A DNA stretch of 60,914 nucleotides from contig JBDTZG010000031.1 in NCBI GenBank assembly GCA_040005235.1, positions 1 through 60,914 on the forward strand, read 5' to 3'. This document shows positions 1,392 to 60,914 of the stretch, piece by piece. Position numbers and translations under genes: made by a program. The stretch is from Acidobacteriota bacterium. GTDB taxonomy: Bacteria; Acidobacteriota; Thermoanaerobaculia; Multivoradales; UBA5704. The first letter of the stretch is position 1; every line of letters begins with the position of its first letter. The notes under the pieces are model-generated. The model was not told the DNA's origin, did not search any database, and saw only the letters and a list, made by a program, of their open reading frames with translations.

Positions 1392-3560
1392 CTACCGCTG
1401 AACAATTCGCAGTAGGGCGTCGTAAGGGTATCTGGGGGAGGTGATCTTGCAGGGGCCGCTCCCTCGGCAGAATTCTGGGGACGGCTTCCAGTCGATTTGC
1501 CCTTGATCCAGAGGCGCGGCCGAAGGGTTTGTCGGGTCGAGCCAGAAGAAGTCGAAATTTCCGGGCTGTGTGCCCAGGTGTAAGGTCAGGTCTACTTCTT
1601 GGTAGCGCGCGGTAGGTCGGCGCCGGCCGTCGTACGCGTCGAAGGCGAGGTTCACGCCCGTACAGCGGAGTAGTCCACTGTCCTGCCGCTTGAAGTCGTC
1701 CTCGTTGGCCTTGCACCGCGGCGTGCTCCGATGCACGTAGAGCAGAAACTGCCGGCCGCTCGTCGCCGTCCGAAAGTTCCTGGACTCCATCGCCGCCCAA
1801 TGCTTGCGGGACAGAGTGCCCGCGTCCCAGCTCGTGTTCGTCGGATAGGGGCCGACATCCGCCCAGCCGGCTCCCGTAGAGCCAGCCGTCGAAGCGATCA
1901 TCTCGTGGATCTTGATTCCGGCGAGATAGGCCCGGATCCGCCCGAGTTGGTCGCGCACCTTCTGGGCGTTGGTCTCGGTGTAGCTGTACCCGAAATGATC
2001 GAAGCTGCCGCCGCCGTGGAGCAGGAATTCCCAAGCTTCGGCCCGCACCGGATCGGGTAGGCCGAACTGGCGGGCATCCGGGGTGGTGGGCGGGATGTCG
2101 GTCTTGAACGTGCGCGTCCCTTTTTCCCCGCCGAGCGGCGTGATGTTGTCCTCGTTAAGGCCGAACACCTTCATGGGATCGCTGAACTCGCGGATCAGAC
2201 GGATCGCGCCGACCTCGAGCCGGTTGTTTCCTGATGTCGCGGGAAACGGCGCTGCTGGATTGGTCAGTACCTGCGTGTAGTGCCCGTTGATTACGTCCGG
2301 CCGGCAGCCCTTGTAGTCCGTTGCGGGTGTCGTCCGGCAAGGCAGACTGGTCGCTGTTCGCCACAGCTTGGCCGCGTCCTGGTGGTACAGCTGTACCGCA
2401 ATCGGGTGCCGGGCTTGAAGCGGCTTGCTGGGCGTCGCGTTCGTCTTCAGGTAGCGCGCCTCGGAGGCCTTGGTGTAGGCGATCATCTGCTGCTGCCAGG
2501 CGATCACGCGGTTGGGATCGATGTTGGCCTGCTCGGGTTCGTTGGCGATCTCCCACCAGACTTTGTCGTAGCACCAGAGCCAGTCGAGCGTCCAATCGAC
2601 GATCTTCTTTTGAAAACCCTGCATCCGCGCGTTGGCGGCGTTGGGTGGATCGGAAATGACGAACCAACGCGCATCGGTGAAGCCGACCTGTTCGATCAGC
2701 CCGGACGTCGGGTTGGGCGCGCCCGCCTGGTTGTTGCTCGCGACCCAGGGGCTGCGCTCCCCCTCGAACGGCGCGAAGAAAGTCACCTCGACGAACAGGT
2801 CGTTGCGCTTCGCCTCGCGGACGACGTTGCGAAGGCTCTCAAAGTACGCCCGGTTGATCATGTCAAATCGGTAGTAGCTCGAGGACTTCGCGCCGGGGAG
2901 AGGTTCGTTGACGAACAGGAAGGGTTGGTTCGCCGGCTCGCGGGCGGTAGTTGCCGGGAGGTGGCTGGGGTTTTCGTTGGCATGGCCCGAAAGTGCCACC
3001 CAGAGGCGGATCTTGTTAAGCCCCCGGGCTTTCAAGTCCGCGAAGATCGCCTTGTAGGTGCCGATCCGGCATTTGAAAGGGTCCAGATTCCCCATCTTGT
3101 CGACCAGGTCCATGTGGCAGGCGGCGTCGGCCGAAACGCCGACCAGGAGGGTCGTCTGAGGTGTCGTCGGCGCGCCGTAGGAGAAATAGTGCGGATAGGT
3201 CGCGGAGACTTGAATCGGCGTGACTGCGCCGGTATAGCCATCGCAGGTCGTAGGATTCGGGGTCTGGGAGGGGCCGAGTGAGGCAAAACTATCCGGGAAC
3301 GGCACGTCGGCGACGGCGATGTCCTGCTCTTGGGTTCCCTCGATCAACGGTTGGCCGAGGACCGAGAGGTCCACCGCGGGCAGCGGGTCTTCGTCCACGC
3401 CGGGATCGCTTCTCGGGGCGTCGGGCGGCGGCTCGTACTTCTCTTCCGGCGGATCGGGAGGATCGGTCTGAGCCCATGGCGACGCGGGGGCGAGGAGTAG
3501 AAGTAAGGCGGCGGCGAGCGCCGGGCGCCAGTGCAGCGAGAGCTTCTTTGCGTATACCAT
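1392..3560 (-). CDS. Secreted glycoside hydrolase clan A-like (GH5/DUF4038-like TIM barrel) protein
   Basis: Signal peptide ending PWA-Q, Pro/acidic linker, GLNKIRLW, VWWEIANEPE (NEP acid/base-like motif), GLNED (possible nucleophile), C-terminal beta domain with WLDP. Confidence 0.6.
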   Translation of the reverse strand: MVYAKKLSLHWRPALAAALLLLLAPASPWAQTDPPDPPEEKYEPPPDAPRSDPGVDEDPLPAVDLSVLGQPLIEGTQEQDIAVADVPFPDSFASLGPSQTPNPTTCDGYTGAVTPIQVSATYPHYFSYGAPTTPQTTLLVGVSADAACHMDLVDKMGNLDPFKCRIGTYKAIFADLKARGLNKIRLWVALSGHANENPSHLPATTAREPANQPFLFVNEPLPGAKSSSYYRFDMINRAYFESLRNVVREAKRNDLFVEVTFFAPFEGERSPWVASNNQAGAPNPTSGLIEQVGFTDARWFVISDPPNAANARMQGFQKKIVDWTLDWLWCYDKVWWEIANEPEQANIDPNRVIAWQQQMIAYTKASEARYLKTNATPSKPLQARHPIAVQLYHQDAAKLWRTATSLPCRTTPATDYKGCRPDVINGHYTQVLTNPAAPFPATSGNNRLEVGAIRLIREFSDPMKVFGLNEDNITPLGGEKGTRTFKTDIPPTTPDARQFGLPDPVRAEAWEFLLHGGGSFDHFGYSYTETNAQKVRDQLGRIRAYLAGIKIHEMIASTAGSTGAGWADVGPYPTNTSWDAGTLSRKHWAAMESRNFRTATSGRQFLLYVHRSTPRCKANEDDFKRQDSGLLRCTGVNLAFDAYDGRRRPTARYQEVDLTLHLGTQPGNFDFFWLDPTNPSAAPLDQGQIDWKPSPEFCRGSGPCKITSPRYPYDALLRIVQR

Positions 3561-3703: not shown

Positions 3704-5134
3704 TCAACCCATCGAGCCGAGCCGGGGCCGCCGGGACAGCTCTTCGGCAGCCTTCCGGGCGAGCGCGGCGGTGGCGGTGTCTTGGACCACGGCGTCGAGG
3801 AACAGCCGGAGCGACATGTGCGCTTCGCGGTGGAGTTTCTCGCTTTCGAAGGTCTTCCGCATCTCGCGCACCATCGCGCGCACTTCGGCCCCGCGGCCTT
3901 GCGCAAGCAGGAGCGCCGCTTCTTCCAGGCCCACGAGCGCCGCGTCGAGCGCCAGATCGCGATCCGCGAAGGCTCTGCGGACGGCGGGGTAGCGAGCCAG
4001 CGCCTCGGCCGTCCGCCCGCTCGCGGCACAGATCCAGGCTTCCAGCCAATCGACGCGGAGGCGGTCGAGATCATTGCCCAGCTCTCCGGCGAGGGTGCGG
4101 ATTTCGGGCAACAGCGCCTCGGCCTCTGCGGGTCGGCCCAGGTGGAGCAGGTTGGTCGCCAGGCTGAACCGCAAGACGCAGCGCGGGCGGATCTCGTTGC
4201 CCGCATCGACAAGGGGCGCGGCCTCGCGCAAGGTCGCTACGGCCGCTTCCGGGTCGCCTTTCTGTTCGAGGGTGGTCGCTCGTTTTAGCAGCAGGCGCCC
4301 GCGGAGCGGCCCGTCCCCTTCGAGTTCCTGAGCACGATCGTGGGTTTCGAGCGCCCTTTTGAACTTTCGCTGATCGCGGAACAGAGAAGCTTCCAGGTCG
4401 AGCACGCGAACCTCGGAGAACAGACCCGGATCGTCGGCCGCCCCGCGGTCGAACCGCTCGCGGGCGCGGCGCATGGTGGTATCTGCGCTCTGGGGCAGAT
4501 TGCCGACGCGCGTCGCATTGCCAAGAAAAATGCCCGCGTAGCCGCTCACTCGGTCGCGCCAGGGGTCGCCGCCTGAAACCAGTTCCGCCGTTCGAACCGC
4601 CAATTGGGCCAGGTCGAGCGCGTCGCGCGCTGTGGCGCTGGCCGCGTTTTCGCTCTCGTGGCACAGAATCTCCACGAGCGCCCAGGAGTGGAAGCCGGGG
4701 AGCGTTTCAATCAGCAGGCGCCGCTCCGCGGGGGTACACGGCTCCAGCCGCCGCCAAAGGTCGAGGGCCGGGAGGCGCTCTTCTGCGCGCGGCATGGTGG
4801 GTTCGAGAGGCTCTGCGCAGAGCGACATTAAGGCCGGAACCATGGCTGCTGCCGCGCGTCGGCCAGCTTCAGCGCCGAATTCGGTCCCGAACCCGCCGCA
4901 GCTCCGGCCGTAGAGCTCGCGATCGGCTTGCGCCACGCTCTCCAAGAATCTCAACGGGCGGTGGACGGCCCCGGCGATTCGTTCGAGCTGAGCAGGAAGA
5001 GGGGTCACCTCGCCCCGTTCGTAGTCCGAAACCTGGCCAGGGTGCATCGACGCTTGCTCGGCCAGCTCGCGCTGCTGTAGTCCGGCGAGCGCCCGGGCGA
5101 GCCTCACCATCACTGCCTCCAACGCATCGCTCAT
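3704..5134 (-). CDS. XRE-family HTH + TPR-repeat transcriptional regulator (copy 1)
   Basis: N-terminal RALAGLQQRELAEQASMHPGQVSDYERG HTH followed by about 350 aa of TPR-like helices. Start ATG 5134 or TTG 5143. Confidence 0.85.
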   Translation of the reverse strand: MSDALEAVMVRLARALAGLQQRELAEQASMHPGQVSDYERGEVTPLPAQLERIAGAVHRPLRFLESVAQADRELYGRSCGGFGTEFGAEAGRRAAAAMVPALMSLCAEPLEPTMPRAEERLPALDLWRRLEPCTPAERRLLIETLPGFHSWALVEILCHESENAASATARDALDLAQLAVRTAELVSGGDPWRDRVSGYAGIFLGNATRVGNLPQSADTTMRRARERFDRGAADDPGLFSEVRVLDLEASLFRDQRKFKRALETHDRAQELEGDGPLRGRLLLKRATTLEQKGDPEAAVATLREAAPLVDAGNEIRPRCVLRFSLATNLLHLGRPAEAEALLPEIRTLAGELGNDLDRLRVDWLEAWICAASGRTAEALARYPAVRRAFADRDLALDAALVGLEEAALLLAQGRGAEVRAMVREMRKTFESEKLHREAHMSLRLFLDAVVQDTATAALARKAAEELSRRPRLGSMG

Positions 5135-5271
5135 TTCACTCAATCTTCGGCTCCCCGGGCGGCCCGCCGATGCCGCATGATCCCCCGGGCGACAAAGTTC
5201 GGCGATTTCTTCGCCGCGTCTCGCGCGGGCCGGACGGACCGGCAGCGCCTTCTACGCCCGGGAGAATCCTC

Positions 5272-5616
5272 ATGACTCGTTGCAAGGTCTTCGTGCCCCT
5301 CGTACTCGCCCTGTTGCTCGCCATTCCCGCGACCGCCTCGGCCGCCACACTCTCCCACGGGTCGGCGGAGGACTGGTCCGGCTGGATGCGCTCGATTTGG
5401 GCTGCGATCGGCTGTATTCTCGACCCCAGTGGCCTTTGCGCACAAGAGCGGCAGTCCGCCATTGGCTGTGGGATCGACCCGAGCGGGCACTGTGGCGCCG
5501 CGCCCGCGCCGGCCGAGATCGGCTGCGGCCTCGATCCGGATGGACACTGTGGCGCCGCGCCTGCGCCAGCCGAGATCGGCTGCACAATCGATTCAGGCGG
5601 ACGCTGCCGCGGGTGA
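5272..5616 (+). CDS. Small secreted repeat peptide precursor (114 aa; signal peptide + 4x IGCxxD[P/S]xGxC)
   Basis: GGAGA RBS at 5261, ATG 5272, signal peptide MTRCKVFVPLVLALLLAIPATASA, four Cys-x7-Cys units. Confidence 0.85.
   Translation: MTRCKVFVPLVLALLLAIPATASAATLSHGSAEDWSGWMRSIWAAIGCILDPSGLCAQERQSAIGCGIDPSGHCGAAPAPAEIGCGLDPDGHCGAAPAPAEIGCTIDSGGRCRG
5410..5607 (+). repeat. Intragenic 54/57-bp tandem repeats encoding the Cys-loop units
   Basis: The Gly codon of each GC motif starts at 5410, 5464, 5521 and 5578. The GAAPAPAEI spacer is duplicated. Confidence 0.9.
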
Positions 5617-5667
5617 ATCCTGGAAACCGGGAAGGGCCTTCGAGCGAAGATCCTCCAAGTATTAATT

Positions 5668-7113
5668 TCAGCGTTCAGGGTGTACCGCGCAGGCGCGCAC
5701 CCAAGCGCGGGCCGCTTCTCGGGCGAGTGCTACGGTAGCGGTCTCGCGTTCGGCGGCTTCGAGGAAAAGCCGGACCGAAGCCAGCTCCTCCTGTTCGAGC
5801 CCGTGAGCACCGAACTGGGGGCGCAGCTCGGCGGAGAGCTGCTTGACCCTGCCGTGGCGCCCGACTTCGAGATGGAGGGCGGCGGCTTCGAGACCGGCGA
5901 GCGCCGCATCCGCCCCCTGGTTCAGGCGGCAGAACTCGCCGACCAGGCTCTCGTAAGCAACGATCGCTTCCTCCCTGCGCCCGAACGCTTCGGCGACCCG
6001 GCCTTCCAGCCAGCGCAACCGGAGGGAGTCGAGCTCACCCCCGAGCTGGAGCGCAAGGGCGCGCACCTTCGGTAGATGCGATTGGGCTTCGTCGGCGCGC
6101 CCTAGACTCAGTAGGCTCACGACGAGGTTGAAGCGGACGACCAGCCGTTGCCGCTGATCCTCGGCCCGTTCGACCAATGGGAGGGCTTCGACCAAGTCTA
6201 GAAGCGCGGACTCAGATTTACCCATCACTTCCAGGGTGAAGGCCCGCTTTAGGAGCAGCCGGCCGCGCAGCCCTTCGCTCCCCTCCGCCAGTGCCTTGTC
6301 ATGAAGGTCCATCGCCTTCGCAAACTGCCGCTGGTCGCGCCAGAACGAGGCTTCCAGGTCCAACAGGCGCACCGGATCGAGCAGCCCCGGGTCCTCCTCC
6401 GCGCCGCGCGGAAACAGATCGTTCGCCCGGCCGAGCGCCGTCCGGGACCGTTCAAAATCGTTCGCCACCCGACAGGCGCTACTCAAATACCCCCAGGCGT
6501 AACCCTGCACCCGCCCACGCCAACCTTCGCTGCCGGAGACCCGCTCGGCGACCCATAGCGCCAGCTCGGCCAGCTGGACCGCTTGGCGGGCCGAATCGCT
6601 CGCTTCGATCCCACTCTCGTGGCTGAGCCGCTCCACCAGAGCCCAGCTCCAGACCTCCGGGGCCTGTTCGACCACGAAGCGGCGTTGCTTGGCGGTCTTG
6701 CCGGCGAGCCGACGCCAGAGGGAGGTTGCTTTGGCGCGCTCCTCCTCCGCGTGCCGCTGACGCATCTGTCCGAGCAGGCTCGAACGCAGCTCCAGCGCTC
6801 CGGCGGCCACCGCCTCTTCGATGCTTCGGCGTTCGGCGAGAGTCGGCTCGGCGGGGCCGGCTTCGGCGTCGACCCAGGGCACGAGCGTCGCCACGAACGC
6901 CAACGCGGCGGCGACCGCCCCGGGCGGAGCGTTCATCAGGGCGGCGAAGGTTTCGAGGCGCTCCCAGGTGATGTGAATGTCGCCCGACTCGATCTCCGAC
7001 ATCGCGCTCCGCGACAGGCCGGCGGCCTGGGCGAGCTGCGCCTGGCCCCAGTCGAGGGCGATGCGCAAGACCTTGAGCGCGCGGTGAAACGGAAAGCCGG
7101 TGGAGGTGGCCAT
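5668..7113 (-). CDS. XRE-family HTH + TPR-repeat transcriptional regulator (copy 2, paralog of 3704-5134)
   Basis: HTH LRIALDWGQAQLAQAAGLSRSAMSEIESG. Shared blocks with copy 1: SWALVE..HES, DPGL...R.LDLEAS..RDQR.F, LRGRLLLKRA. Confidence 0.88.
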   Translation of the reverse strand: MATSTGFPFHRALKVLRIALDWGQAQLAQAAGLSRSAMSEIESGDIHITWERLETFAALMNAPPGAVAAALAFVATLVPWVDAEAGPAEPTLAERRSIEEAVAAGALELRSSLLGQMRQRHAEEERAKATSLWRRLAGKTAKQRRFVVEQAPEVWSWALVERLSHESGIEASDSARQAVQLAELALWVAERVSGSEGWRGRVQGYAWGYLSSACRVANDFERSRTALGRANDLFPRGAEEDPGLLDPVRLLDLEASFWRDQRQFAKAMDLHDKALAEGSEGLRGRLLLKRAFTLEVMGKSESALLDLVEALPLVERAEDQRQRLVVRFNLVVSLLSLGRADEAQSHLPKVRALALQLGGELDSLRLRWLEGRVAEAFGRREEAIVAYESLVGEFCRLNQGADAALAGLEAAALHLEVGRHGRVKQLSAELRPQFGAHGLEQEELASVRLFLEAAERETATVALAREAARAWVRACAVHPER

Positions 7114-7118
7114 GGAAG

Positions 7119-7155
7119 TTGGTTCCTTTTAGATAAGGGTCTCTAAAAGAACCAA
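7119..7155. promoter_or_regulatory. AT-rich inverted repeat overlapping the RBS of regulator copy 2 (operator or translational hairpin)
   Basis: TTGGTTCCTTTTAGA-N8-TCTAAAAGAACCAA: 14-bp arms with one bulge, ending 5 nt before the ATG at 7113. Confidence 0.65.
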
Positions 7156-7390
7156 GTTGCCGCAGCCCCCCCTCAGGTGGACAAGAAATTCGACTTTCGG
7201 TAGATGGGGTGCGACCCGTCCGAACTCTGCCGCCCGGGTACGTACGCCACACCAGCAGTTGAACGTGTCGTGCCGAATCTCGATCGCAGGCGTTTACCGT
7301 CTCTCTCATGGACACCCCTTTCCCCCTCGGGCGTCTCGCACCCCCTCTCGCGCCCGAGGGGCTCGCGGATGCGCCGCTCTCGGTGGAGCC

Positions 7391-7834
7391 GTGACCGGCT
7401 TGACCTTTCGCCACGAGGCTCAAGAGATTTTCGCCCGCGCCGAAGCGGCGCTCGACCAAGGCCTGGTAGAAGACGCCGCAAGGCTCTTCGGTCTTTCTGC
7501 GGCGAAATGGCGCGCGACCGGCGATGTGTTTCCGGCGGCCGACGCCTACTTCGAGCTGGGGGCCATTCTCCTTCTTCAAGGGAGAGGAGGGCTGCTTTCC
7601 GATCTCGCCGATCGGTTGCTCGAACTGTTGAAGCAAGACCCACTTCCACCGGGCTCCCACGCGAAGCTTCGGATCTTTGCCGCATTGATGAGAAAGGGCG
7701 CAGCGAACCAGGACGCATTTTTCAGTCTAGTTCACGAACAGCGCCGTCATCGAAAGGCGGAGGCGTGCAACCTTTCGTTTTTGAAGGGTCGAGAAGTGGA
7801 CGCTCCCGACCTGGAAGGAGGAGATCGTCAATGA
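7391..7834 (+). CDS. Stand-alone TPR-like protein homologous to the C-terminus of the neighbouring regulators
   Basis: GTG 7391 after GGTGGAG. Ungapped match to the regulator C-terminus (AA....E..A.LL.QGRG...H..LR.F). Confidence 0.7.
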   Translation: MTGLTFRHEAQEIFARAEAALDQGLVEDAARLFGLSAAKWRATGDVFPAADAYFELGAILLLQGRGGLLSDLADRLLELLKQDPLPPGSHAKLRIFAALMRKGAANQDAFFSLVHEQRRHRKAEACNLSFLKGREVDAPDLEGGDRQ

Positions 7835-8238
7835 ATCCCGAAGTCGTCAAGTACCGGCTGGTCCTCGATCTGGACGTGGTGAGAGGAAGCCGCTGGCGCG
7901 AGTTGGCGCCGTTTCGCGAAGCGGTGTTGTCCCACTTCGCAAATCCGGATCTTCGCGCCGAGCTGGCCGTCGTGTGCGAGGCCATCGCCGATCAAATGCT
8001 CGAACGGGAGGAAGAAGACCTCGCCCCCGGGGAATCGTGGGCTACGGCGCGCCTGCGCGCGGTGCTCGCGGACCTTCTGTTCTCCAAGAAGGCGCTCGAT
8101 GAAATTCTGACCATCCTCCCGGACGATGATTCGATTCCGAACCGGCAGCAGTTGTCCCAACGTGCCGCCGCGCTGGTCCGGCAGCTCGACCGCGACCTGG
8201 CGAACCTCGAAAGCGACCTCGGCCCGCCGCCGGAGTAG
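7831..8238 (+). CDS. Hypothetical helical protein, translationally coupled to the upstream gene
   Basis: GGAGGAG RBS and ATGA overlap at 7831-7834. Confidence 0.75.
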   Translation: MNPEVVKYRLVLDLDVVRGSRWRELAPFREAVLSHFANPDLRAELAVVCEAIADQMLEREEEDLAPGESWATARLRAVLADLLFSKKALDEILTILPDDDSIPNRQQLSQRAAALVRQLDRDLANLESDLGPPPE

Positions 8239-8284
8239 GGCTCGGCGCGCACCGTCCGTCCGGGGTAGGATGAGGCGGATTCCC

Positions 8285-8911
8285 ATGACCCGCCTCTGCC
8301 ATCGAGTCGTCCCTCTTCTGGCCGCCGTCGCGCTGCTCGCTGGTTGTTACGTCGAGCAGCCGGCGGAGCAGCGTTCTTCTTCCCGCCCGTCAAGATCGAC
8401 GGCCGGCGGGGAACGTGACCAGTCGCCCCGGGCGAATCCCGAGCGCGATTCGCGGCGGTCTTCCGGGCACTCCTCTTCGACCTCCTCTCGATCCCGCGGC
8501 GATATCCGTTGGAGCGAGACCGACCCTCCGATCAATCTCTCCCATCTGTTCGAGGGGCAGATCAACAAGCGGGGCAAGCCGGTTGGATTCCATGCCAGGC
8601 CGGGGGGTGTCGATCCGGAGGGGGCTCGGCTGGTGCGGGTGGTGGACGGGCCGAACCGCGCGGGGGTGTATGTCGCGAAGGTCGAGATCCGCTCCGGTGG
8701 AGGGGAGTGGTTGGGTAAGACCTCCACGCTCTATCCGGACGAGCTCTCGGAAGACGACGTGGTGGCCGCGGTCCTCGCCGCGTTCGAGCAGTCGAGCGGC
8801 AGCGAGAAGTGGCGCGGCGATTCGGGGAAGGGCTTTACGATCGAGGGTTACTTCCAGGACGGCCGGATCAATACGGCCTATCCGATTTTTCGGGGATCGG
8901 GGGGAAGGTGA
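8285..8911 (+). CDS. Lipoprotein with bacterial EndoU-like ribonuclease domain
   Basis: Lipobox LAGC, Ser/Arg-rich linker, HLFEG..GFH..K.STLYP..TAYP pattern typical of bacterial EndoU domains. Alternative start 8270. Confidence 0.8.
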   Translation: MTRLCHRVVPLLAAVALLAGCYVEQPAEQRSSSRPSRSTAGGERDQSPRANPERDSRRSSGHSSSTSSRSRGDIRWSETDPPINLSHLFEGQINKRGKPVGFHARPGGVDPEGARLVRVVDGPNRAGVYVAKVEIRSGGGEWLGKTSTLYPDELSEDDVVAAVLAAFEQSSGSEKWRGDSGKGFTIEGYFQDGRINTAYPIFRGSGGR

Positions 8912-8913
8912 TC

Positions 8914-9297
8914 ATGGCGATGAATGTGAACCAGGGTGCCGAGCCGCCGCTGCTGCGAGTCTTCCGCGACGACGCGGGCGACCTGCGCGCCGAGGATCTT
9001 TCCAGGCGGACGAGGCGCGGGCTGCTGATCTCGTTCCTCGAAAGCGAGGTGCAGGGCAGCGTCGCGGCCGGTCGCGAGATTTTGGAGCAGCTGGCGCAGG
9101 TGGTCGCCGGGGAGCGCCCGCGGGCCACCTGGATCGGCAATGCGCACTCCCTAACGATGAGCAAGAAGACGGCTCGGATCACCGACGAGATGGACACCGT
9201 GGCCCCCGTGCTTCGCCTTCCGCTGGGCGACCTCTACAGCGCCCTGGATGCCTGGTTGGACGTGCTGGAAGGCAACGGCGGCCCCGCGGAGGATTGA
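8914..9297 (+). CDS. YacL/UPF0231-like protein (possible immunity partner)
   Basis: FRDDAG...FLESEVQG...WIGNAHSLT...ALDAW resembles the YacL family. Starts 2 bp after the EndoU gene. Confidence 0.55.
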   Translation: MAMNVNQGAEPPLLRVFRDDAGDLRAEDLSRRTRRGLLISFLESEVQGSVAAGREILEQLAQVVAGERPRATWIGNAHSLTMSKKTARITDEMDTVAPVLRLPLGDLYSALDAWLDVLEGNGGPAED

Positions 9298-56200: not shown

Positions 56201-59200
56201 GCTCGAATCTCACCCAGAGATCAGAGAAGCGATCGTGCTCGCGCGCGAAGCGCCGGGTGCTTCGGGGATTGGCAAGCGGCTTATCGCTTGGGCCCGGCCG
56301 CACGACTCCATCCCTCTGCCCGACCTGCACCGTTTCCTTGCCGGTCGCCTGCCCGACTACATGGTGCCTTCGGCGTTCGTCGAGGTCGCGGAGTGGCCGC
56401 TCACGCCGACCGGCAAGATCGACCGCCGCGCGCTGCCCGATCCGGTCTTCGAATCCAGCTCTACCGAACGGATTGCGCTGCGCACTGCCACCGAGGAGAT
56501 CGTCGCCGGCGTCTTTACCGAGCTTCTCGGCGTCGCCGAAATCGGCGCCGAAGCCGACTTCTTCGCGCTCGGTGGCCACTCGCTGCTCGCGACGCAACTG
56601 GCGTCTCGTTTGCGCAGAACTTTTTGGGTCGAGCTTTCCCTCGCTGAGCTTTTCGCTGGGGCGACGGTCGCCGCGATCGCCGAGCGGATCGACGCGCTCG
56701 CGGGTGGTCCGTCGGCGCCGGCTTTGAAACGAAGAAAAGCGTCTGGTGAGGAGGGTGAAGGCGAGCTTTCGTTCGCGGAGGAGCGGTTGTGGTTTCTCGA
56801 CCGGTTGGATCCCGGGACGGCGACGTACAACGTCGGTTTTCAGCTCACGCTCGACGGGCCGCTTTCGTTCGCACCGTTTGTCGCGGCGCTTTCCTCGATC
56901 GTCGCGCGGCATGCGCGGCTGCGAACCCGGTTCGGCGAGCGAGCGGGCAAGCCGTTCACCACGGTGGAGCCGCCTAGCGCCGTGCCGGTACCGAGGATCG
57001 ATCTCTCCGCGATCGAGAGCCGGGCCGAAGCCGCGCGGCTCGCTGCGAACGAAGGGCGGCGACCGTTCGATCTGGAGCGCGGGCCGCTTCTTCGCGTCAC
57101 CCTTTTGAGGCGTGCTCCCGATCGTCTCGACGCGCTATTCGTGTTCCATCACATCGCGACCGATGGCTGGTCGATCTCGGTCTTCTCGCGCGAGATGGCG
57201 GAGCTGTATGCCGCCGCGATCGAGGAGCGCCCCGCGGGGCTTCCCTCGTTGCCGATCGAGGTTTCGGATTGGGCAGCCTGGCAGCGCGATTGGCTATCCG
57301 GCGAGGTCTACGACCGGCAGCTCGCATGGTGGCGGGAGCGGCTCGCGGGCGCTCCGGAGGTTCTGGATCTTCCCGTCGATCGTCCGCGGCCGGCGGCTCC
57401 GAAAAGCCCCGCGTGGCTGGTGCGCCGTGAGCTTCCTTCGGCGATCCTTTCTTCGGTTTCCGCCCGCTCGCGCGCGGCGGGTGCCACTCCGTTCATGGTT
57501 CTGCTCGCCGCGTGGGCGGGGCTGCTGTCGCGGTTGGGCGCGGGCCGCGACCTGGTGATCGGGGCTCCGATCGCGAACCGCAATCGGGCGGAGACGGAGG
57601 GGCTGATCGGCTTCTTTATCAATTCGTTGGCGATGAGGATTTCCACGGAAGAGTCGACGCTGCACGGTTTGCTGGCTCGAACGCGGGAGGTTGCACTGGG
57701 TGCGTACGCCCACCAGGATTTCCCGTTCGACCGCTTGGTCGCGGAGCTGGGCGGCGCGCGGGGCGGCAAGGTTCCGCCGCTTTTCTCCGTCTCGCTGGTG
57801 TTTCAAAACCTCCCCGAGGCGGTGCTGCTGCCGGGGGTGACGACGACGATCGAGCCGCTCGGCGGGGGAGTGGCGAAGCTCGATCTCGCTCTCGTCGTCT
57901 CTCCTGTGCGGGAGGCAGGGGGCGGTCGGTTGTCTGCGCTGTTGGAGATCGATTTAGATCTTTTCGATCCGGCGACCGGCGCTCGGCTGCTTGCCGGGTT
58001 CGAGCGGATGGTTGCGGAGATGGCGGCGCATCCGGAGCGGCTGTTGAGGGATGCGGAGCTGTTGGGGCGGCCGGAGCGGCATCAACTGCTCACCGAATGG
58101 GGGGAAGGGAATCTCGATCTGCCGCCGGTACTCGTGCACGACTGGATCGGGAAACATGCGCGGGAGCGGCCGGATGGGTTGGCTTTGGAGTCGGAGCACG
58201 AGCCGGGGCGCCGGTACACCTGGGCGGAGGTCGCGGCCCATACGGACCTGCTGGCGCGGCGGCTCGCGGGGTTGGGCGCCGGGCCGGAGACAGTGGTGGG
58301 AGTGTCGCTGGAGCGTTCGGTCGATCGGGCGCTGGCGATGTTTGCGATCTGGAAGGCCGGCGCTTGCTACCTGCCGGTCGATCCGGAGCTGCCCGAAGCG
58401 CGGCGGGCGCTGTTGTTGAAAGATGCCGGGGCGGTGGTGGTGATGGTGAGGGATTTGACGGCGGAGAGGGATGGGTGGATCGGGACGGTTGCGCCGCTTC
58501 TTGTCAGTAAGGAGAGCGGAAGGCCGGTGGACTTCGGGCCGGAGGCGGTTCCGCGGAGGGCGGTGGCGGAAAACTTGGCGTACATCATCTATACCTCGGG
58601 CTCTACCGGGTTGCCGAAAGGTGTGGGCATTTCGCACCGGCATGCCGCCGGGCACTTTGCGGCGGCTTGTGGTTTCTATCGGATGGATTCGACCGATCGG
58701 GTGGTGCAGTTCGCTTCGGCGAGCTTCGACGTCTCGATGGAGCAGGTCGGCGTGGCGCTCGCTTCCGGCGGAACGCTGGTGGTGCGCGGTCCGGAATTGC
58801 CGCCACCTTTGGAGCTTTCGGCTTGGATGACGCGGTGGGGGATCACGAACGCCAATTTGCCGACCGCCGTATGGACGGAGTGGAGCTGGTCGGATGCGCC
58901 GCTGCCGAGGGTGCTGCGCAATTTGGTGACCGGCGGCGAGGCGATGACCCCGGCTGCCGCCGAGCGCTTCCGCCAACGGCTTACCGAAATGGAAAATCCT
59001 CCCGTCGTCTACAACGGCTACGGTCCCACCGAGACGGTGGTGACCGCCACCTGTTACGACCTTAGGTTCGGGCGCCTGCCGGAATCGGGCTCGGTTTCGA
59101 TCGGTCGGCTGCTGCCTTCCCGGACGGGCTTCGTCGTCGATCCCGAAGGCCGACCGCAGGCGCTGGGCGGCATCGGCGAGCTGGTGCTGGGCGGCCTGCT

Positions 59201-60914
59201 CGCGCGCGGCTATCTCGATCGGCCGGATCTTACGGCCGAGCGATTCCGCCCCAACCCCCTTACTGACGCTTCTTTCGGAGCGAGGGTCTACTGGACCGGC
59301 GACCGCGTCCGGCAGCGGGGAGACGGCTCGTTCGATTACCTCGGTCGCACCGACAGCCAAATCAAGATCCGCGGCTTCCGGATCGAGCCGGGAGAGATCG
59401 AAGCGGCGCTTGGCCTACACCCGGGCGTCAAAGAGGCAATCGTGCTCGCTCGCGAAGCGCCGGGCGGTTCAGCGATCGGCAAGCAGCTGATCGCTTGGTA
59501 TGTGGCGCGTCCGGAACACCCCCCATCCTGTCCTTCCCCCGGCTCCAACCCACCCCCTCCCCGGAGGAAGGGACCCTTCGCCGACCTCAAGAGCTTTCTG
59601 GGAGGGCGACTTCCTGATTACATGGTGCCTTCGGCGTTTGTCGAGGTCTCCGAGTGGCCGCTTTCTCCGACTGGCAAGATCGATCGCCGCTCGCTTCCCG
59701 GTCCCGTCTTCGAATCCGGGGGCGGCGCCGAACGGATCGCCCTGCGTACGCCGACGGAAGAGATCGTCGCCGGCCTGTTCGCCGAGCTGCTCGGGGGCTC
59801 CGGAATCGGCGCCGACGCGGATTTCTTCCTGCTCGGCGGCCACTCGCTGCTCGCGACGCAGCTCGCCTCCCGCTTGCGCCGAGCGTTCGGCGTCGAAGTT
59901 CCCCTCGGCGAGCTTTTTTCCGGCTCCACGGTGGCGGCCATCGCCGCCCGCATCGATGCGCTCATCGGCCGGCCCCACGAGGCGCTGGTACCGCTGGTTC
60001 GGAGTATCCGGCCAGCGGAGATCCCGCTCTCGTTCGCGCAGGAGCGGCTCTGGTTTCTCGATCGCCTGGAGCCCGGGACGTCGACCTACAACGTCGGTTT
60101 CCGCCTGATGCTCGAAGGCCCGCTCGATCCCGCGGCACTCGCCGCCGCGCTCTCCGCGCTGGTCGCCCGGCACGAGCCGCTGCGCACCCGGTTCGAGGTC
60201 GTTCTCGACCGGCCGATCCAGCGGATCGATCCGGCGGGCGCCTTCCCTCTCGCGAATGTCGACCTTGCGAGGCTCGAAGGCGGCACGGCAGGCGCCGAGG
60301 CCGCTCGGCTCGCGAAGGGGGAAGGGCGCCGGCCGTTCGATCTCGAGCGCGGCCCGGTCCTGCGCTCGACTTGGGTCCGGCGGGGTCCGGAGCGGCACGA
60401 CGTCCTGTTCGTCTTCCATCACATCGCAACCGACGGCTGGTCGATCGGCGTGTTCTCGCGCGAGTTGGTTGCGCTGTACGGCGCCGCGATCGAGAGCGAG
60501 CCGGCGGTCTTGCCGCCGCTGCCGATCGATTACGCCGATTGGGCTCTTTGGCAACGAGCTTGGCTCTCGGGCGAGATCTACCGCGAACAGCTCTCCTGGT
60601 GGCGAGAGCAGCTCGCCGGAGCGCCGGAGGTGCTCGACCTGCCGCTCGATCGGCCACGGCCGAGCTTGCCGAGGCGTCGTGCTCACACGATGCGCCACGC
60701 GCTTTCAGCGGAGCTCCGGACGGCGATCGGCGCTCGCTCGCGCACGGCAGGTGCCACTCCCTACATGGTGCTGCTCGCCGTCTGGTCCGGCCTGTTGTCG
60801 CGCTTGGGCGGTAGCCGCGATCTGGTGATCGGTTTGCCGATCGCCAATCGCAATCGGGCCGAGACCGAAGGGCTGGTCGGCTTCTTCGTCAACTCGTTGG
60901 CGATCCGGATCTCG
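50256..60914 (+). CDS. Non-ribosomal peptide synthetase, C-A-T / C-A-T / C-A-T / C..., 3' end beyond the window
   Basis: Same frame at every point checked from TTG 50256 to the edge. C motifs HHLVADF (~50725), HHIAIDG (~53940), HHIATDG (~57147, ~60418). A3 cores YxIxTSGSTGxPKG (~52190, ~55375, ~58580). T motifs LGGHSL (~53352, ~56568, ~59832). Missing from the ORF track because it has no stop in the window; start uncertain. Confidence 0.95.
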   Translation, partial: MHVPSSIEPVEEDRWGTPPNLRPGPERAPLSFGQEALWFLSRLAPASRAYHLCGAARLLVPCDAKTGEAVARAFAALAKHHPALRTTFGEGPDGTPEQRVGSGPGLDFSQVVVASEVDLALHLARELDAPFDLEQGPLVRAGLITAAGETVLWLAAHHLVADFWSLAVMLRDVGVAYAHADGRQALLAAGDGEPQLSYAEWTRWQRERTAGAEGARELAAWKEALAGELPRLELPTDRPRRGKVTWDGGAVDICVAADAVRALGRVARGAKSNLFSALLAAFQAFLARLSGQNDLIVGTPTTGRFGTRVADQVGYFVNPVPVRADLSGDPKFAELLARQRPTIQAALALQAYPFSRLAEEIQPEREPGRSPIFDAVLAYEKARGGEGFWGFALGQAGTRVDLGGLALESLRVEPSGSPFDLSLAVSEVAGGLAGSLRYASELFDRATVERWAGWWVRLIEGAAVAPDLRLSELPLLSPSERTALLASGASGPSAGAALSGDRARLDSGFAQWEQQTPDALAVADAGEEWTYRELGERANRLAHHLRGWGVAEEARVAVCLDRSAALVAAMLGVLRAGAAFVPIDPAYPEARRAAMIELSGATAVVTSESFVGSWCGAASVVLLDALSGPESAPPSRRSHPDQLAYVIFTSGSTGTPKGVAISHRAALHMVSWYGTRFGWTPADRGSQIAGPGFDATVFEIWPALSTGASVHVPPDEARLSPAALLAWLAAERVTVAFLPTPLAEAAFAEPRAKDLALRYLTVGGDRLHRGAPNGFTLVNMYGPAENAVVSTAGEVPTDDPQPSIGRPIDGVRVYLLDRRQGLAPPGAVGELAAAGPGLARGYLGDPAQTAERFRPDPFGAPGERLYRTGDLARFRKADGEIDFLGRLDHQVKIRGQRIELGEIESALASLPEIREATVLVHEASPGDRRLVAFVVLTHEVTDADLIEPLRRRLSDAMVPRTFVRLERLPANANGKVDRRALAVLAARAVAEEGSGGIEGGTAPRSETELRVAAIWRELLGRERVGVEDDFFALGGHSLLVTQLASRMRRVFGVEFPLVELFAGATVASIAARVEQKLTEGGDVERIERVARPSDVPLSFSQERLWFVDRLEPGKATYNVGFRLTLEGPLSTTALEAALAAVVARHEPLRTRYAQPGDVARQEIDSPSLSLFVLWPRIDLTLDEQASAEEAVRIARSEGRRPFDLARGPVVRATLVKRGADLHDAIFTFHHIAIDGWSLSIFSREIAELYAAAAEGREAHLPDLPIEYADWAIWQRKWLSGERYERELSWWREHLQGAPEGIDLPTDRPRPSVPQRHAGQVRRTLPPHLSQALAARANAESSTPFMTLLAAWAGLLARLGSGNDLVIGTPIANRNRAETEGLIGFFVNSLALRIATEPAPTLRSLLATVRAASVGAFAHQDFPFERLVAELGGARGGIAGGVPPIYQVSFAFQNLPAPVMLPGLRTTVEELDGGSAKLDLGLVVTPFEEGFVAQLELNLDLFDPATGARLLAGFERMAAELAAHPEKLLADAVLLGSAERQQLLIEWRDGNLALAPLLAHDFIARNARERPEALALESEHEPGRRYTWAEVAAVTDVLARRLAGLGAGPEKVVGVSLERSVDRVLAMFAVWKAGACYLPVDPELPVERRALLLEDAGALVVMVRDVPSGDLGWIGTVAPLLVSKENGLPVDGGPEADPRRVLPENLAYLIYTSGSTGVPKGVGISHRHAAGHFAAAAGFYRLVSTDRVVQFASASFDVSLEQVGVALASGGTLVVRGPELPPPLELSAWMSRLRITNANLPTAVWTEWSWSEAPLPKGLRVLVTGGEAMTPAAADRFRQRLAEMDDPPVVYNGYGPTETVVTATCYDLRYGRLPESGSVSIGRLLPKRAGHVVDPEGRPQPLGGVGELVLGGLLARGYLDRPDLTAERFRPDPFTDASFGARLYWTGDRVRQRGDGSFDYLGRTDQQIKIRGFRIEPGEIEAALESHPEIREAIVLAREAPGASGIGKRLIAWARPHDSIPLPDLHRFLAGRLPDYMVPSAFVEVAEWPLTPTGKIDRRALPDPVFESSSTERIALRTATEEIVAGVFTELLGVAEIGAEADFFALGGHSLLATQLASRLRRTFWVELSLAELFAGATVAAIAERIDALAGGPSAPALKRRKASGEEGEGELSFAEERLWFLDRLDPGTATYNVGFQLTLDGPLSFAPFVAALSSIVARHARLRTRFGERAGKPFTTVEPPSAVPVPRIDLSAIESRAEAARLAANEGRRPFDLERGPLLRVTLLRRAPDRLDALFVFHHIATDGWSISVFSREMAELYAAAIEERPAGLPSLPIEVSDWAAWQRDWLSGEVYDRQLAWWRERLAGAPEVLDLPVDRPRPAAPKSPAWLVRRELPSAILSSVSARSRAAGATPFMVLLAAWAGLLSRLGAGRDLVIGAPIANRNRAETEGLIGFFINSLAMRISTEESTLHGLLARTREVALGAYAHQDFPFDRLVAELGGARGGKVPPLFSVSLVFQNLPEAVLLPGVTTTIEPLGGGVAKLDLALVVSPVREAGGGRLSALLEIDLDLFDPATGARLLAGFERMVAEMAAHPERLLRDAELLGRPERHQLLTEWGEGNLDLPPVLVHDWIGKHARERPDGLALESEHEPGRRYTWAEVAAHTDLLARRLAGLGAGPETVVGVSLERSVDRALAMFAIWKAGACYLPVDPELPEARRALLLKDAGAVVVMVRDLTAERDGWIGTVAPLLVSKESGRPVDFGPEAVPRRAVAENLAYIIYTSGSTGLPKGVGISHRHAAGHFAAACGFYRMDSTDRVVQFASASFDVSMEQVGVALASGGTLVVRGPELPPPLELSAWMTRWGITNANLPTAVWTEWSWSDAPLPRVLRNLVTGGEAMTPAAAERFRQRLTEMENPPVVYNGYGPTETVVTATCYDLRFGRLPESGSVSIGRLLPSRTGFVVDPEGRPQALGGIGELVLGGLLARGYLDRPDLTAERFRPNPLTDASFGARVYWTGDRVRQRGDGSFDYLGRTDSQIKIRGFRIEPGEIEAALGLHPGVKEAIVLAREAPGGSAIGKQLIAWYVARPEHPPSCPSPGSNPPPPRRKGPFADLKSFLGGRLPDYMVPSAFVEVSEWPLSPTGKIDRRSLPGPVFESGGGAERIALRTPTEEIVAGLFAELLGGSGIGADADFFLLGGHSLLATQLASRLRRAFGVEVPLGELFSGSTVAAIAARIDALIGRPHEALVPLVRSIRPAEIPLSFAQERLWFLDRLEPGTSTYNVGFRLMLEGPLDPAALAAALSALVARHEPLRTRFEVVLDRPIQRIDPAGAFPLANVDLARLEGGTAGAEAARLAKGEGRRPFDLERGPVLRSTWVRRGPERHDVLFVFHHIATDGWSIGVFSRELVALYGAAIESEPAVLPPLPIDYADWALWQRAWLSGEIYREQLSWWREQLAGAPEVLDLPLDRPRPSLPRRRAHTMRHALSAELRTAIGARSRTAGATPYMVLLAVWSGLLSRLGGSRDLVIGLPIANRNRAETEGLVGFFVNSLAIRIS
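54760..59960 (+). repeat. Duplicated NRPS module segment (about 54760-56700 vs 57966-59960, offset about 3.2 kb)
   Basis: Long near-identical nucleotide blocks across the end of C, the whole A domain and T. Confidence 0.9.

Follow-up and report, generated by a model that had tools for sequence, protein, structure and literature searches.

A duplicated five-gene cassette of Thermoanaerobaculia (Acidobacteriota) that places HTH-TPR regulators beside a secreted-type cysteine-loop repeat precursor

The window analysed here is a stretch of 60,914 nucleotides from an Acidobacteriota bacterium (positions 1 to 60,914 of contig JBDTZG010000031.1, assembly GCA_040005235.1). An earlier note on positions 3704-8238 had described two paralogous proteins with an XRE-type helix-turn-helix (HTH) and tetratricopeptide repeats (TPR) around a small secreted repeat-bearing peptide, and had proposed a peptide-signalling locus analogous to the RRNPP systems. 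In our analysis the locus proved to be one representative of a five-gene cassette, regB-peptide-regA-D-E, that is conserved, lineage-specific and heavily duplicated in Thermoanaerobaculia (Acidobacteriota). Positions 3704-8238 are the exact span of these five genes. The earlier account of the three genes was right in every detail; it overlooked genes D and E inside the same coordinates, and it missed the paralog expansion and a second architecture with another N-terminal domain. We put the probability that the cassette is an RRNPP-like signal-receptor system, by analogy rather than by family membership, at about 0.5. The features of the locus are as follows.

3704-5143, minus strand: regB (copy 1 of the earlier note), 479 aa, TTG start, XRE-HTH and TPR; the peptide gene is divergent from it.
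5144-5271: regB/peptide spacer of 128 bp, a shared divergent promoter region with a candidate operator inverted repeat inside.
5185-5202: imperfect inverted repeat CCGGGC-N6-GTTCGG, candidate operator, called as a stem-loop; the motif GGCGACAAAGTTCGGCG starts at 5188.
5272-5616, plus strand: precursor peptide gene, 114 aa, with signal peptide, leader, four units and a 2-residue tail.
5668-7113, minus strand: regA (copy 2 of the earlier note), 481 aa, XRE-HTH and TPR; convergent with the peptide gene and its partner in every cassette.
7114-7390: regA/D divergent spacer, with a degenerate reverse copy of the motif, CCGAACTCTGCCGCC, at 7220-7234 and other blocks conserved among orthologs.
7391-7834, plus strand (GTG start at 7391 or TTG start at 7400): gene D, ~145 aa, a small TPR-like protein.
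7831-8238, plus strand: gene E, 135 aa, all-helical, with the invariant motif RWRELAPFREAVL.

Open reading frames (ORFs), Pfam and BLASTP agree on two paralogous regulators flanking the peptide gene. The Pfam HTH models cover residues ~11-68 in both proteins and the TPR models lie further on, with HTH_3 (E = 4.3e-9) and TPR_12 (2.9e-8) in regB and HTH_31 (3.1e-9) and TPR_12 (1.8e-4) in regA; NCBIfam gave only HTH matches below threshold. The two regulators share 49% identity over 346 aa (BLASTP, 4e-86). The 114-aa peptide ORF is separated from regA by 51 nt and from regB by 128 nt, its orientation was confirmed as divergent from regB and convergent with regA, and translation confirmed the four IGCxxD[P/S]xGxC units in its product.

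The pairing of peptide and regulator recurs throughout the source genome (6.2 Mb). A six-frame search found the motif C..DP.G.C 22 times in 11 ORFs, and the 45 tblastn matches of regA coincide with the motif-bearing loci. Inspection of these loci gave 15 cassettes, one of them degenerate (on contig C107). All 19 full-length HTH-TPR paralogs, defined as ORFs matching positions ~1-480 of the regulator profile at E<=1e-100, are accompanied on the opposite strand by a peptide-like ORF no more than 150 nt away. The layout is constant: regA converges on the peptide gene, upstream of which a second paralog, regB, is transcribed divergently. At the studied locus regB is of full length; in most cassettes its position is taken by a short HTH paralog of ~250-330 aa that matches HTH_31 or HTH_3 in Pfam and keeps the first repeats without the C-terminal TPRs.

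The linkage extends to other genomes. When one locus per genome was inspected in 20 genomes, a regulator match of >=270 aa adjoined the peptide in 18; of the two exceptions, one locus lies at a contig end and one has a weak regulator match. In three further genomes (G003, G013, G022), a regulator was found within 1 kb of 45 of the 48 peptide matches with E<=1e-10, and 39 of these pairs were convergent. Conversely, all 25 of the best regulator matches in these genomes had a peptide within 1 kb, dropping to 6-12 of 25 at lower ranks. This comparison used 90 of 95 peptide rows, the other five being second fragments of ORFs already entered, and the best 150 of 216 regulator matches, so that misses may be overcounted. 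Since the same pairing is seen at 15 loci of the source genome and in many relatives, it goes far beyond chance. A search of public genomes by gene E alone led to the same cassette: it returned 17 loci in six metagenome-assembled genomes (MAGs), with the order regB-peptide-regA-(D)-E in 16 and the 17th interrupted by a contig end. The record titles place these MAGs in Thermoanaerobaculia, apart from one that its submitter labelled Holophagales.

Of 24 other genomes in the same family, 23 contained matches to the peptide profile, as many as 38 in a single genome; both genomes sampled in each of two further families of the same order were matched as well. The profile matched none of the 12 genomes from the remaining eight sampled families of the order. 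In a phylum-wide sample, the peptide family was found in at least 3 of 401 genomes, a lower bound because that search scored 12 candidates per genome. The named relatives are all Thermoanaerobaculia or Acidobacteriota MAGs, in agreement with the acidobacterial host suspected earlier.

The peptide gene has the properties of a genuine coding sequence. A ribosome-binding site (RBS)-like GGGAGA lies 8 nt 5' of its ATG. By inspection only, the N-terminus of the product, MTRCKVFVPLVLALLLAIPATASA|A, resembles a Sec signal peptide, with a basic n-region, a hydrophobic h-region and an A-S-A motif. The ratio of nonsynonymous to synonymous substitution rates (dN/dS) of the ORF was 0.22-0.50 against three orthologs and one paralog, and the peptide gene evolves under purifying selection. 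Unit number varies among the compared sequences (3, 3, 4, 4 and 5). In the 114-aa precursor the units read IGCILDPSGLC, IGCGIDPSGHC, IGCGLDPDGHC and IGCTIDSGGRC, and at the DNA level they form a 54-57-nt repeat. An alignment of 14 precursors from the source genome (A1) shows a signal peptide, a W..(L/I)W...G leader in which W43 and G47 are invariant, and two to four units.

The peptide family comprises 1507 representative clusters (50% identity) at E<=1e-3 and 462 at E<=1e-10. Among the best 150 of the 1507 clusters, the unit consensus is [D/E/K]-[E/N/A]-G-C-x-[I/L]-D-P-[N/D/S]-G-[R/G]-C, typically in three or four copies; 413 of 478 units keep both cysteines, and 78 of 139 short precursors with a Cys-closed unit end two residues after the last cysteine. 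The paired cysteines suggest a disulfide loop, which would set the units apart from the short, linear, unmodified signals of RRNPP systems. In three cassettes of the source genome (C18, C118, C137) the units retain G...DP.G and both cysteines are lost. At the four variable unit positions, likeness was 0.37 within and 0.18 between precursors, and none of 2000 permutations reached the observed value; the same comparison in 145 representatives gave 0.43 versus 0.23. Recent tandem duplication could also produce this higher likeness within precursors.

No Pfam or NCBIfam family matches the peptide. Pfam DUF6799 passed its gathering score in none of the 14 peptides of the source genome and scored 31.1 bits in one distant representative (P0008); no mention of DUF6799 was found in the literature search. 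The named database records of the peptide family are all "hypothetical protein" and all from Thermoanaerobaculia. Two representatives, P0023 (731 aa) and P0099 (783 aa), are signal-peptide proteins with 8-10 profile-matched stretches of Cys-less xDPNG(R/K) units. The N- and C-terminal regions on either side of these stretches are unrelated, and the C-terminal ones carry DEWDGEV.KR repeats; neither protein has a Pfam family.

An AlphaFold2 model of regA, built with 58 homologs (alignment A2), was searched against the PDB with Foldseek. The model (predicted local distance difference test, pLDDT, 92.8) has a five-helix HTH, a long linker helix at residues 92-136 and helix pairs from 141 to 477. 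The top matches were TPR complexes of LGN/Pins (6hc2, 3sf4, 4wne; E = 2.7e-6, template modelling (TM) score by target 0.52-0.64), followed by RapJ-PhrC (4gyo; E = 1.7e-5, TM 0.64) and then phage Rap-peptide complexes. PlcR-PapR-DNA (3u3w; E = 3.3e-4, TM 0.53; also 2qfc), RapF, RapH, RapI and the anti-sigma factor DdvA (8rw5; E = 6.9e-4) were matched as well. All of these except DdvA we take to be superhelices clamping an extended peptide. In the structural comparison suggested in the earlier note, the predicted TPR superhelix of regA matches the Rap-Phr and PlcR-PapR complexes. The regulators have no conserved hydrophobic segment (Kyte-Doolittle windows of 19 residues stay below 1.8 and peak at inconsistent positions), and the models point to a soluble protein with a TPR-type superhelix and an N-terminal HTH. 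A membrane-anchored regulator was considered and ruled out, as the hydrophobic stretch at regA 65-83 is not kept among the paralogs. A complex prediction of regA 92-481 with the mature peptide 25-114, run without controls, scored 0.21, under the mark of 0.32, and carries no weight for or against binding.

The pairing also persists where the regulator is built differently. A profile search of all ORFs gave 28 peptide-like ORFs in the source genome, of which 13 weaker ones have no paired-Cys loop and repeat a longer unit, (L/V)W..xG..(I/V)DPxG(R/K)P. Eleven of these 13 adjoin TPR paralogs in a co-directional arrangement, and the co-directional pattern was repeated among weak peptide matches of the genomes G003, G013 and G022. 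In these TPR paralogs the match to the regulator profile begins only around position 110-210, and an H..C..C N-terminus takes the place of the HTH. This motif is known from zinc-binding anti-sigma factors. The Pfam model zf-HC2 (PF13490) was above its cut-off in one of nine N-termini and weak in three more. Extracytoplasmic function (ECF) sigma genes (Sigma70_r2) lie directly upstream of the TPR genes on contig C103; at most loci of this second architecture no Sigma70_r2 match was nearby, among the matches listed. Compared with ZAS-type anti-sigma factors, the paralogs share the H..C..C start and, on C103, the ECF sigma neighbours, but they mostly have H-x4-C rather than H-x3-C and lack a membrane segment. 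The N-terminus may be an anti-sigma-like domain. Secreted-type precursors with 2-5 G(C)xxDPxG(x)C units are in this way paired with a soluble TPR protein fused to either an HTH or a Cys motif, and peptide plus TPR module appears to be the constant pair, with an exchangeable output domain. Because the peptide stays with the TPR module despite the swapped N-terminus, this is the strongest genomic argument for an interaction between TPR and peptide over a mere relation of regulator to target.

Candidate regulatory sites accompany the genes. Four loci with proteins of ~75% identity share the 128-bp regB/peptide spacer almost letter by letter. The motif GGCGACAAAGTTCGGCG occurs four times without mismatch in the genome: in the regB/peptide promoter, in a paralogous peptide promoter, in the regA-D spacer of that paralog (C8:185898) and at a site on C18. 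Perfect copies also occur in the regA-D spacers of two orthologs in the four-locus alignment (L065 and L066). Other cassettes have different palindromes with GC arms and an AT centre at the same place, such as ACCCAAAATTTTGGGT, ACCCGTTTAAACGGGT and ACCGGAAAAGTCCGGT, and most of these have no second genome copy within 2 mismatches outside peptide-gene promoters. Such cassette-specific inverted repeats fit the expectation for candidate operators of HTH dimers. A sigma-70 promoter scan of 5000-8400 returned 0 sites.

Further repeats were seen in related positions. The fourth perfect copy, CGCCGAACTTTGTCGCC at C18:227362 of the source genome (G000), lies in a stretch like a regA-D spacer with no cassette near; it could represent either a remnant or an additional target. 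At 7121-7153, close upstream of the regA start, there is an inverted repeat GGTTCCTTTTAGA … TCTAAAAGAACC; the orthologs have a different small palindrome at the equivalent place, e.g. GCTCCTCTAAAGGAGC.

In the signal-receptor system that we favour, the precursor would be exported by Sec, and its units, probably disulfide-closed, would be freed by a protease that may cut at the acidic residue preceding each G-C. The released peptide would then re-enter the cytoplasm and bind the concave face of the TPR superhelix of regA and/or regB. Binding would alter the attachment of HTH dimers to the inverted repeats of the two spacers (regB/peptide and regA/D-E), and the outcome would be autoregulation of the peptide together with control of the D-E operon as output. 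We infer every step beyond the side-by-side encoding of these genes. In its fullest form, which is possible though less likely than not, the family would be a non-homologous counterpart of RRNPP with tens of orthogonal channels per genome, disulfide-closed DPxG loop peptides in several copies per precursor, a cytoplasmic TPR reader on an XRE HTH or an anti-sigma-like domain, and a TPR decoy (D) with its partner (E) as output.

Several points weigh against a signal-receptor system. Sequence homology to RRNPP receptors is absent at the detection level used: a PDB sequence search with the profile of 58 regulators gave generic TPR/HTH chains only (best 60 of 203 matches at E<=1), and no RNPP-specific Pfam model was found on the regulators at E<=0.1. 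Since LGN is the best fold match, the structural likeness may reflect only a generic TPR superhelix of 8-9 repeats (TM 0.4-0.64). The host is presumably diderm, and the peptide would then need either two passages through the outer membrane or a periplasmic mode of action; moreover, the cytoplasm would reduce disulfide loops. The W..LW..G leader is conserved more strongly than any other part of the precursor, an unusual feature in a pro-region that is discarded. The usual RRNPP layout is co-directional, while here it is convergent. The genome has one gene for an Opp/Dpp-type peptide-binding protein (SBP_bac_5, C8:64502-65602), and this single copy can be weighed on either side. Finally, co-duplication of linked genes alone accounts for the repeated adjacency and the cassette-specific signatures. 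The earlier proposal of an RRNPP-analogous system is supported in part, by the recurrent tight linkage, the acidobacterial host, the soluble regulator and the likeness of TPR fold; sequence homology to RRNPP receptors does not back it. As membership fails on sequence homology and host range, we file the system as an analogue and not as a member.

The main rival, unlikely though by no means far-fetched, is that the locus holds a regulator and its target only, with the HTH-TPR protein controlling a secreted Cys-loop repeat protein that has an extracellular job (e.g., as a bacteriocin-like peptide, protease inhibitor, metal binder or adhesive) and the TPR region sensing something else. The inverted repeats in the peptide promoters would suit such control; the conserved leader, together with the DPxG turn in Cys-to-Cys loops of 9 residues, has the look of a folded mini-domain; the 731- and 783-aa proteins bear many DPNG units and no regulator-like context is known for them; and diversified paralogs of a secreted peptide also suit competition or kin recognition. 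However, peptide and TPR stay paired when the HTH is replaced and the gene order altered, which is easier to understand if the two interact, the cysteines are dispensable in several paralogs, and genes for immunity, export or modification are not conserved in the cassette. A separate, improbable explanation keeps the peptide outside the cytoplasm as a periplasmic or envelope signal without re-import, for example as a reporter sensitive to folding, redox state or proteases that is relayed through a membrane component to the TPR regulators. A diderm host, a Sec signal with paired cysteines that suits an oxidised periplasmic protein, the anti-sigma-like N-termini of the second architecture and the ECF sigma genes upstream on C103 would agree with it. 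It is at odds with the cassettes, which conserve no membrane protein, and with the HTH and Cys-motif TPR proteins, which have no conserved hydrophobic segment (the latter by sequence inspection); the zf-HC2 cut-off, too, was passed by one of nine N-termini only.

Two other explanations are less probable still. That the repeats are core peptides of an enzymatically modified multi-core precursor, as in loci for ribosomally synthesized and post-translationally modified peptides, would explain the multi-core layout and the conserved leader, but no modifying enzyme, protease or transporter recurs across the 15 cassettes with 9-kb flanks, and we consider this very improbable. GC-rich genomes yield many spurious ORFs, and 114 ORFs of >=40 aa occur in 14 kb here; nevertheless, the probability that the peptide gene is a chance ORF or annotation artefact is close to nil, given the strong RBS, dN/dS of 0.22-0.50, 1507 representative clusters and synteny conserved in other MAGs, and the conservation data refute it.

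Among characterised systems, PlcR-PapR and NprR-NprX of Bacillota are alike in having a receptor of XRE-type HTH, linker helix and TPR superhelix, a neighbouring gene for an exported propeptide and a palindromic promoter box. Their peptides are short and linear, whereas the units described here have a Cys pair and a DPxG turn. The cassette further differs in its acidobacterial diderm host, the convergent order, two regulator paralogs plus D and E per cassette and the lack of detectable homology. Rap-Phr systems (PMC11343458; PMC9765709) also comprise many paralogous receptor-peptide pairs per genome that arose by duplication and divergence, with multi-copy propeptides, and Rap TPR domains are among the best structural matches of regA (4gyo, 4i9c, 8rte, 8rsu). 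However, Rap proteins lack an HTH and target response regulators, the Phr signals are linear and five or six residues long, and the systems occur in Bacillota and their mobile elements. The arbitrium system AimR-AimP-AimX of Bacillus phages (PMC13220667) likewise combines a compact HTH-TPR receptor, a propeptide and a small output gene under a receptor-bound operator, and D-E could be such an output. In contrast to arbitrium, the cassettes are chromosomal, present in dozens of copies and not phage-borne, their output genes are unrelated, and there is no homology. A comparable scale of expansion, with tens of orthogonal pairs in a single genome, has been described in another phylum, for another type of peptide. 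The TPR domain of LGN/Pins is a superhelix of eight repeats, the inner groove of which holds an extended peptide like a clamp; this eukaryotic polarity protein has no HTH, and the likeness is at the level of fold only (16% identity).

Multi-copy propeptides are already known in RRNPPA systems (PMC9765709; PMC11343458), as are large paralog numbers in RRNPP/RRNPPA systems (PMC7425212), and peptide pheromones with TPR receptors are treated as a hallmark of Bacillota/Firmicutes and of phages, plasmids and mobile elements (PMC10075063; PMC9765709). No prior description of the peptide-regulator family was found in a full-text literature search, which did not cover supplements and subscription journals; the same search found no published account of a characterised system with this architecture, in line with what the earlier note had supposed. 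Even if the peptides are not ligands, the cassette is a previously undescribed and highly expanded five-gene family. If they are, it would represent convergent evolution of TPR-receptor peptide signalling in a diderm, here in Acidobacteriota of the soil, and would be, among diderm phyla, the first family of genetically encoded peptide-receptor communication. It would then also raise the question of how peptides pass two membranes, and would offer a large natural library of presumably orthogonal triples of peptide, sensor and operator. Acidobacteriota are an abundant and poorly cultured phylum, and the cassette gives a first handle on their regulation.

The accessory genes were compared all against all over 15 loci with 9-kb flanks. 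Gene D, divergent from regA, is present in 12 of 15 cassettes, and gene E follows it in seven loci. Gene D has a weak Pfam match to TPR_16 (E = 0.0065), and BLASTP between D and regA gave nothing. Two of 17 related loci show, at the place of D, a match to positions 375-455 of the regulator profile (E = 1.6e-5 and 5e-4), and D therefore resembles a free-standing copy of the C-terminal repeats of the regulators. The start of gene E overlaps the stop of D (ATGA), with a strong RBS, GGAAGGAGGAG, before it. Its 17 homologs (alignment A3, 17 sequences) are all unnamed or 'hypothetical'. Nothing significant was found for gene E in Pfam or NCBIfam and no usable feature match in Atlas; its AlphaFold2 model is helical (pLDDT 70), with no PDB fold match at E<=0.001. 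In the same comparison, only the regulators, the peptide, D and E, or frames overlapping them, recur in seven or more loci, and no modifying enzyme, protease, transporter or importer, membrane protein, immunity gene or export gene is conserved in the cassette. The single SBP_bac_5 gene lies ~4 kb from one of the cassettes (C8b, 58018-60782).

The genes next to the studied cassette are of other kinds. On the plus strand, an ORF at 8126-8911 has a bacterial EndoU nuclease domain (Pfam, 4.4e-23), and an internal start would give it an apparent lipoprotein signal (…LLAGC). The end of this ORF is overlapped by a 162-aa ORF at 8809-9297, also on the plus strand, which is a possible immunity gene; beside the other cassettes the two are not conserved as a pair. 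On the other side, at 1392-3560 on the minus strand and outside the cassette, a 722-aa signal-peptide protein adjoins regB and has a weak, sub-threshold match to a cellulase (GH5; E = 2.4e-4). The contig opens, at 1-133, with a 21-nt tandem repeat, AGTAGTGGTCTGGGCCAGCTC, in 6.3 copies. Translations of the VVVW(A/S)SS type also occur at other contig ends, including that of C137 (3952-4179) and at locus L023, and the 21-nt repeat at the contig end is probably a dispersed repeat that breaks the assembly.

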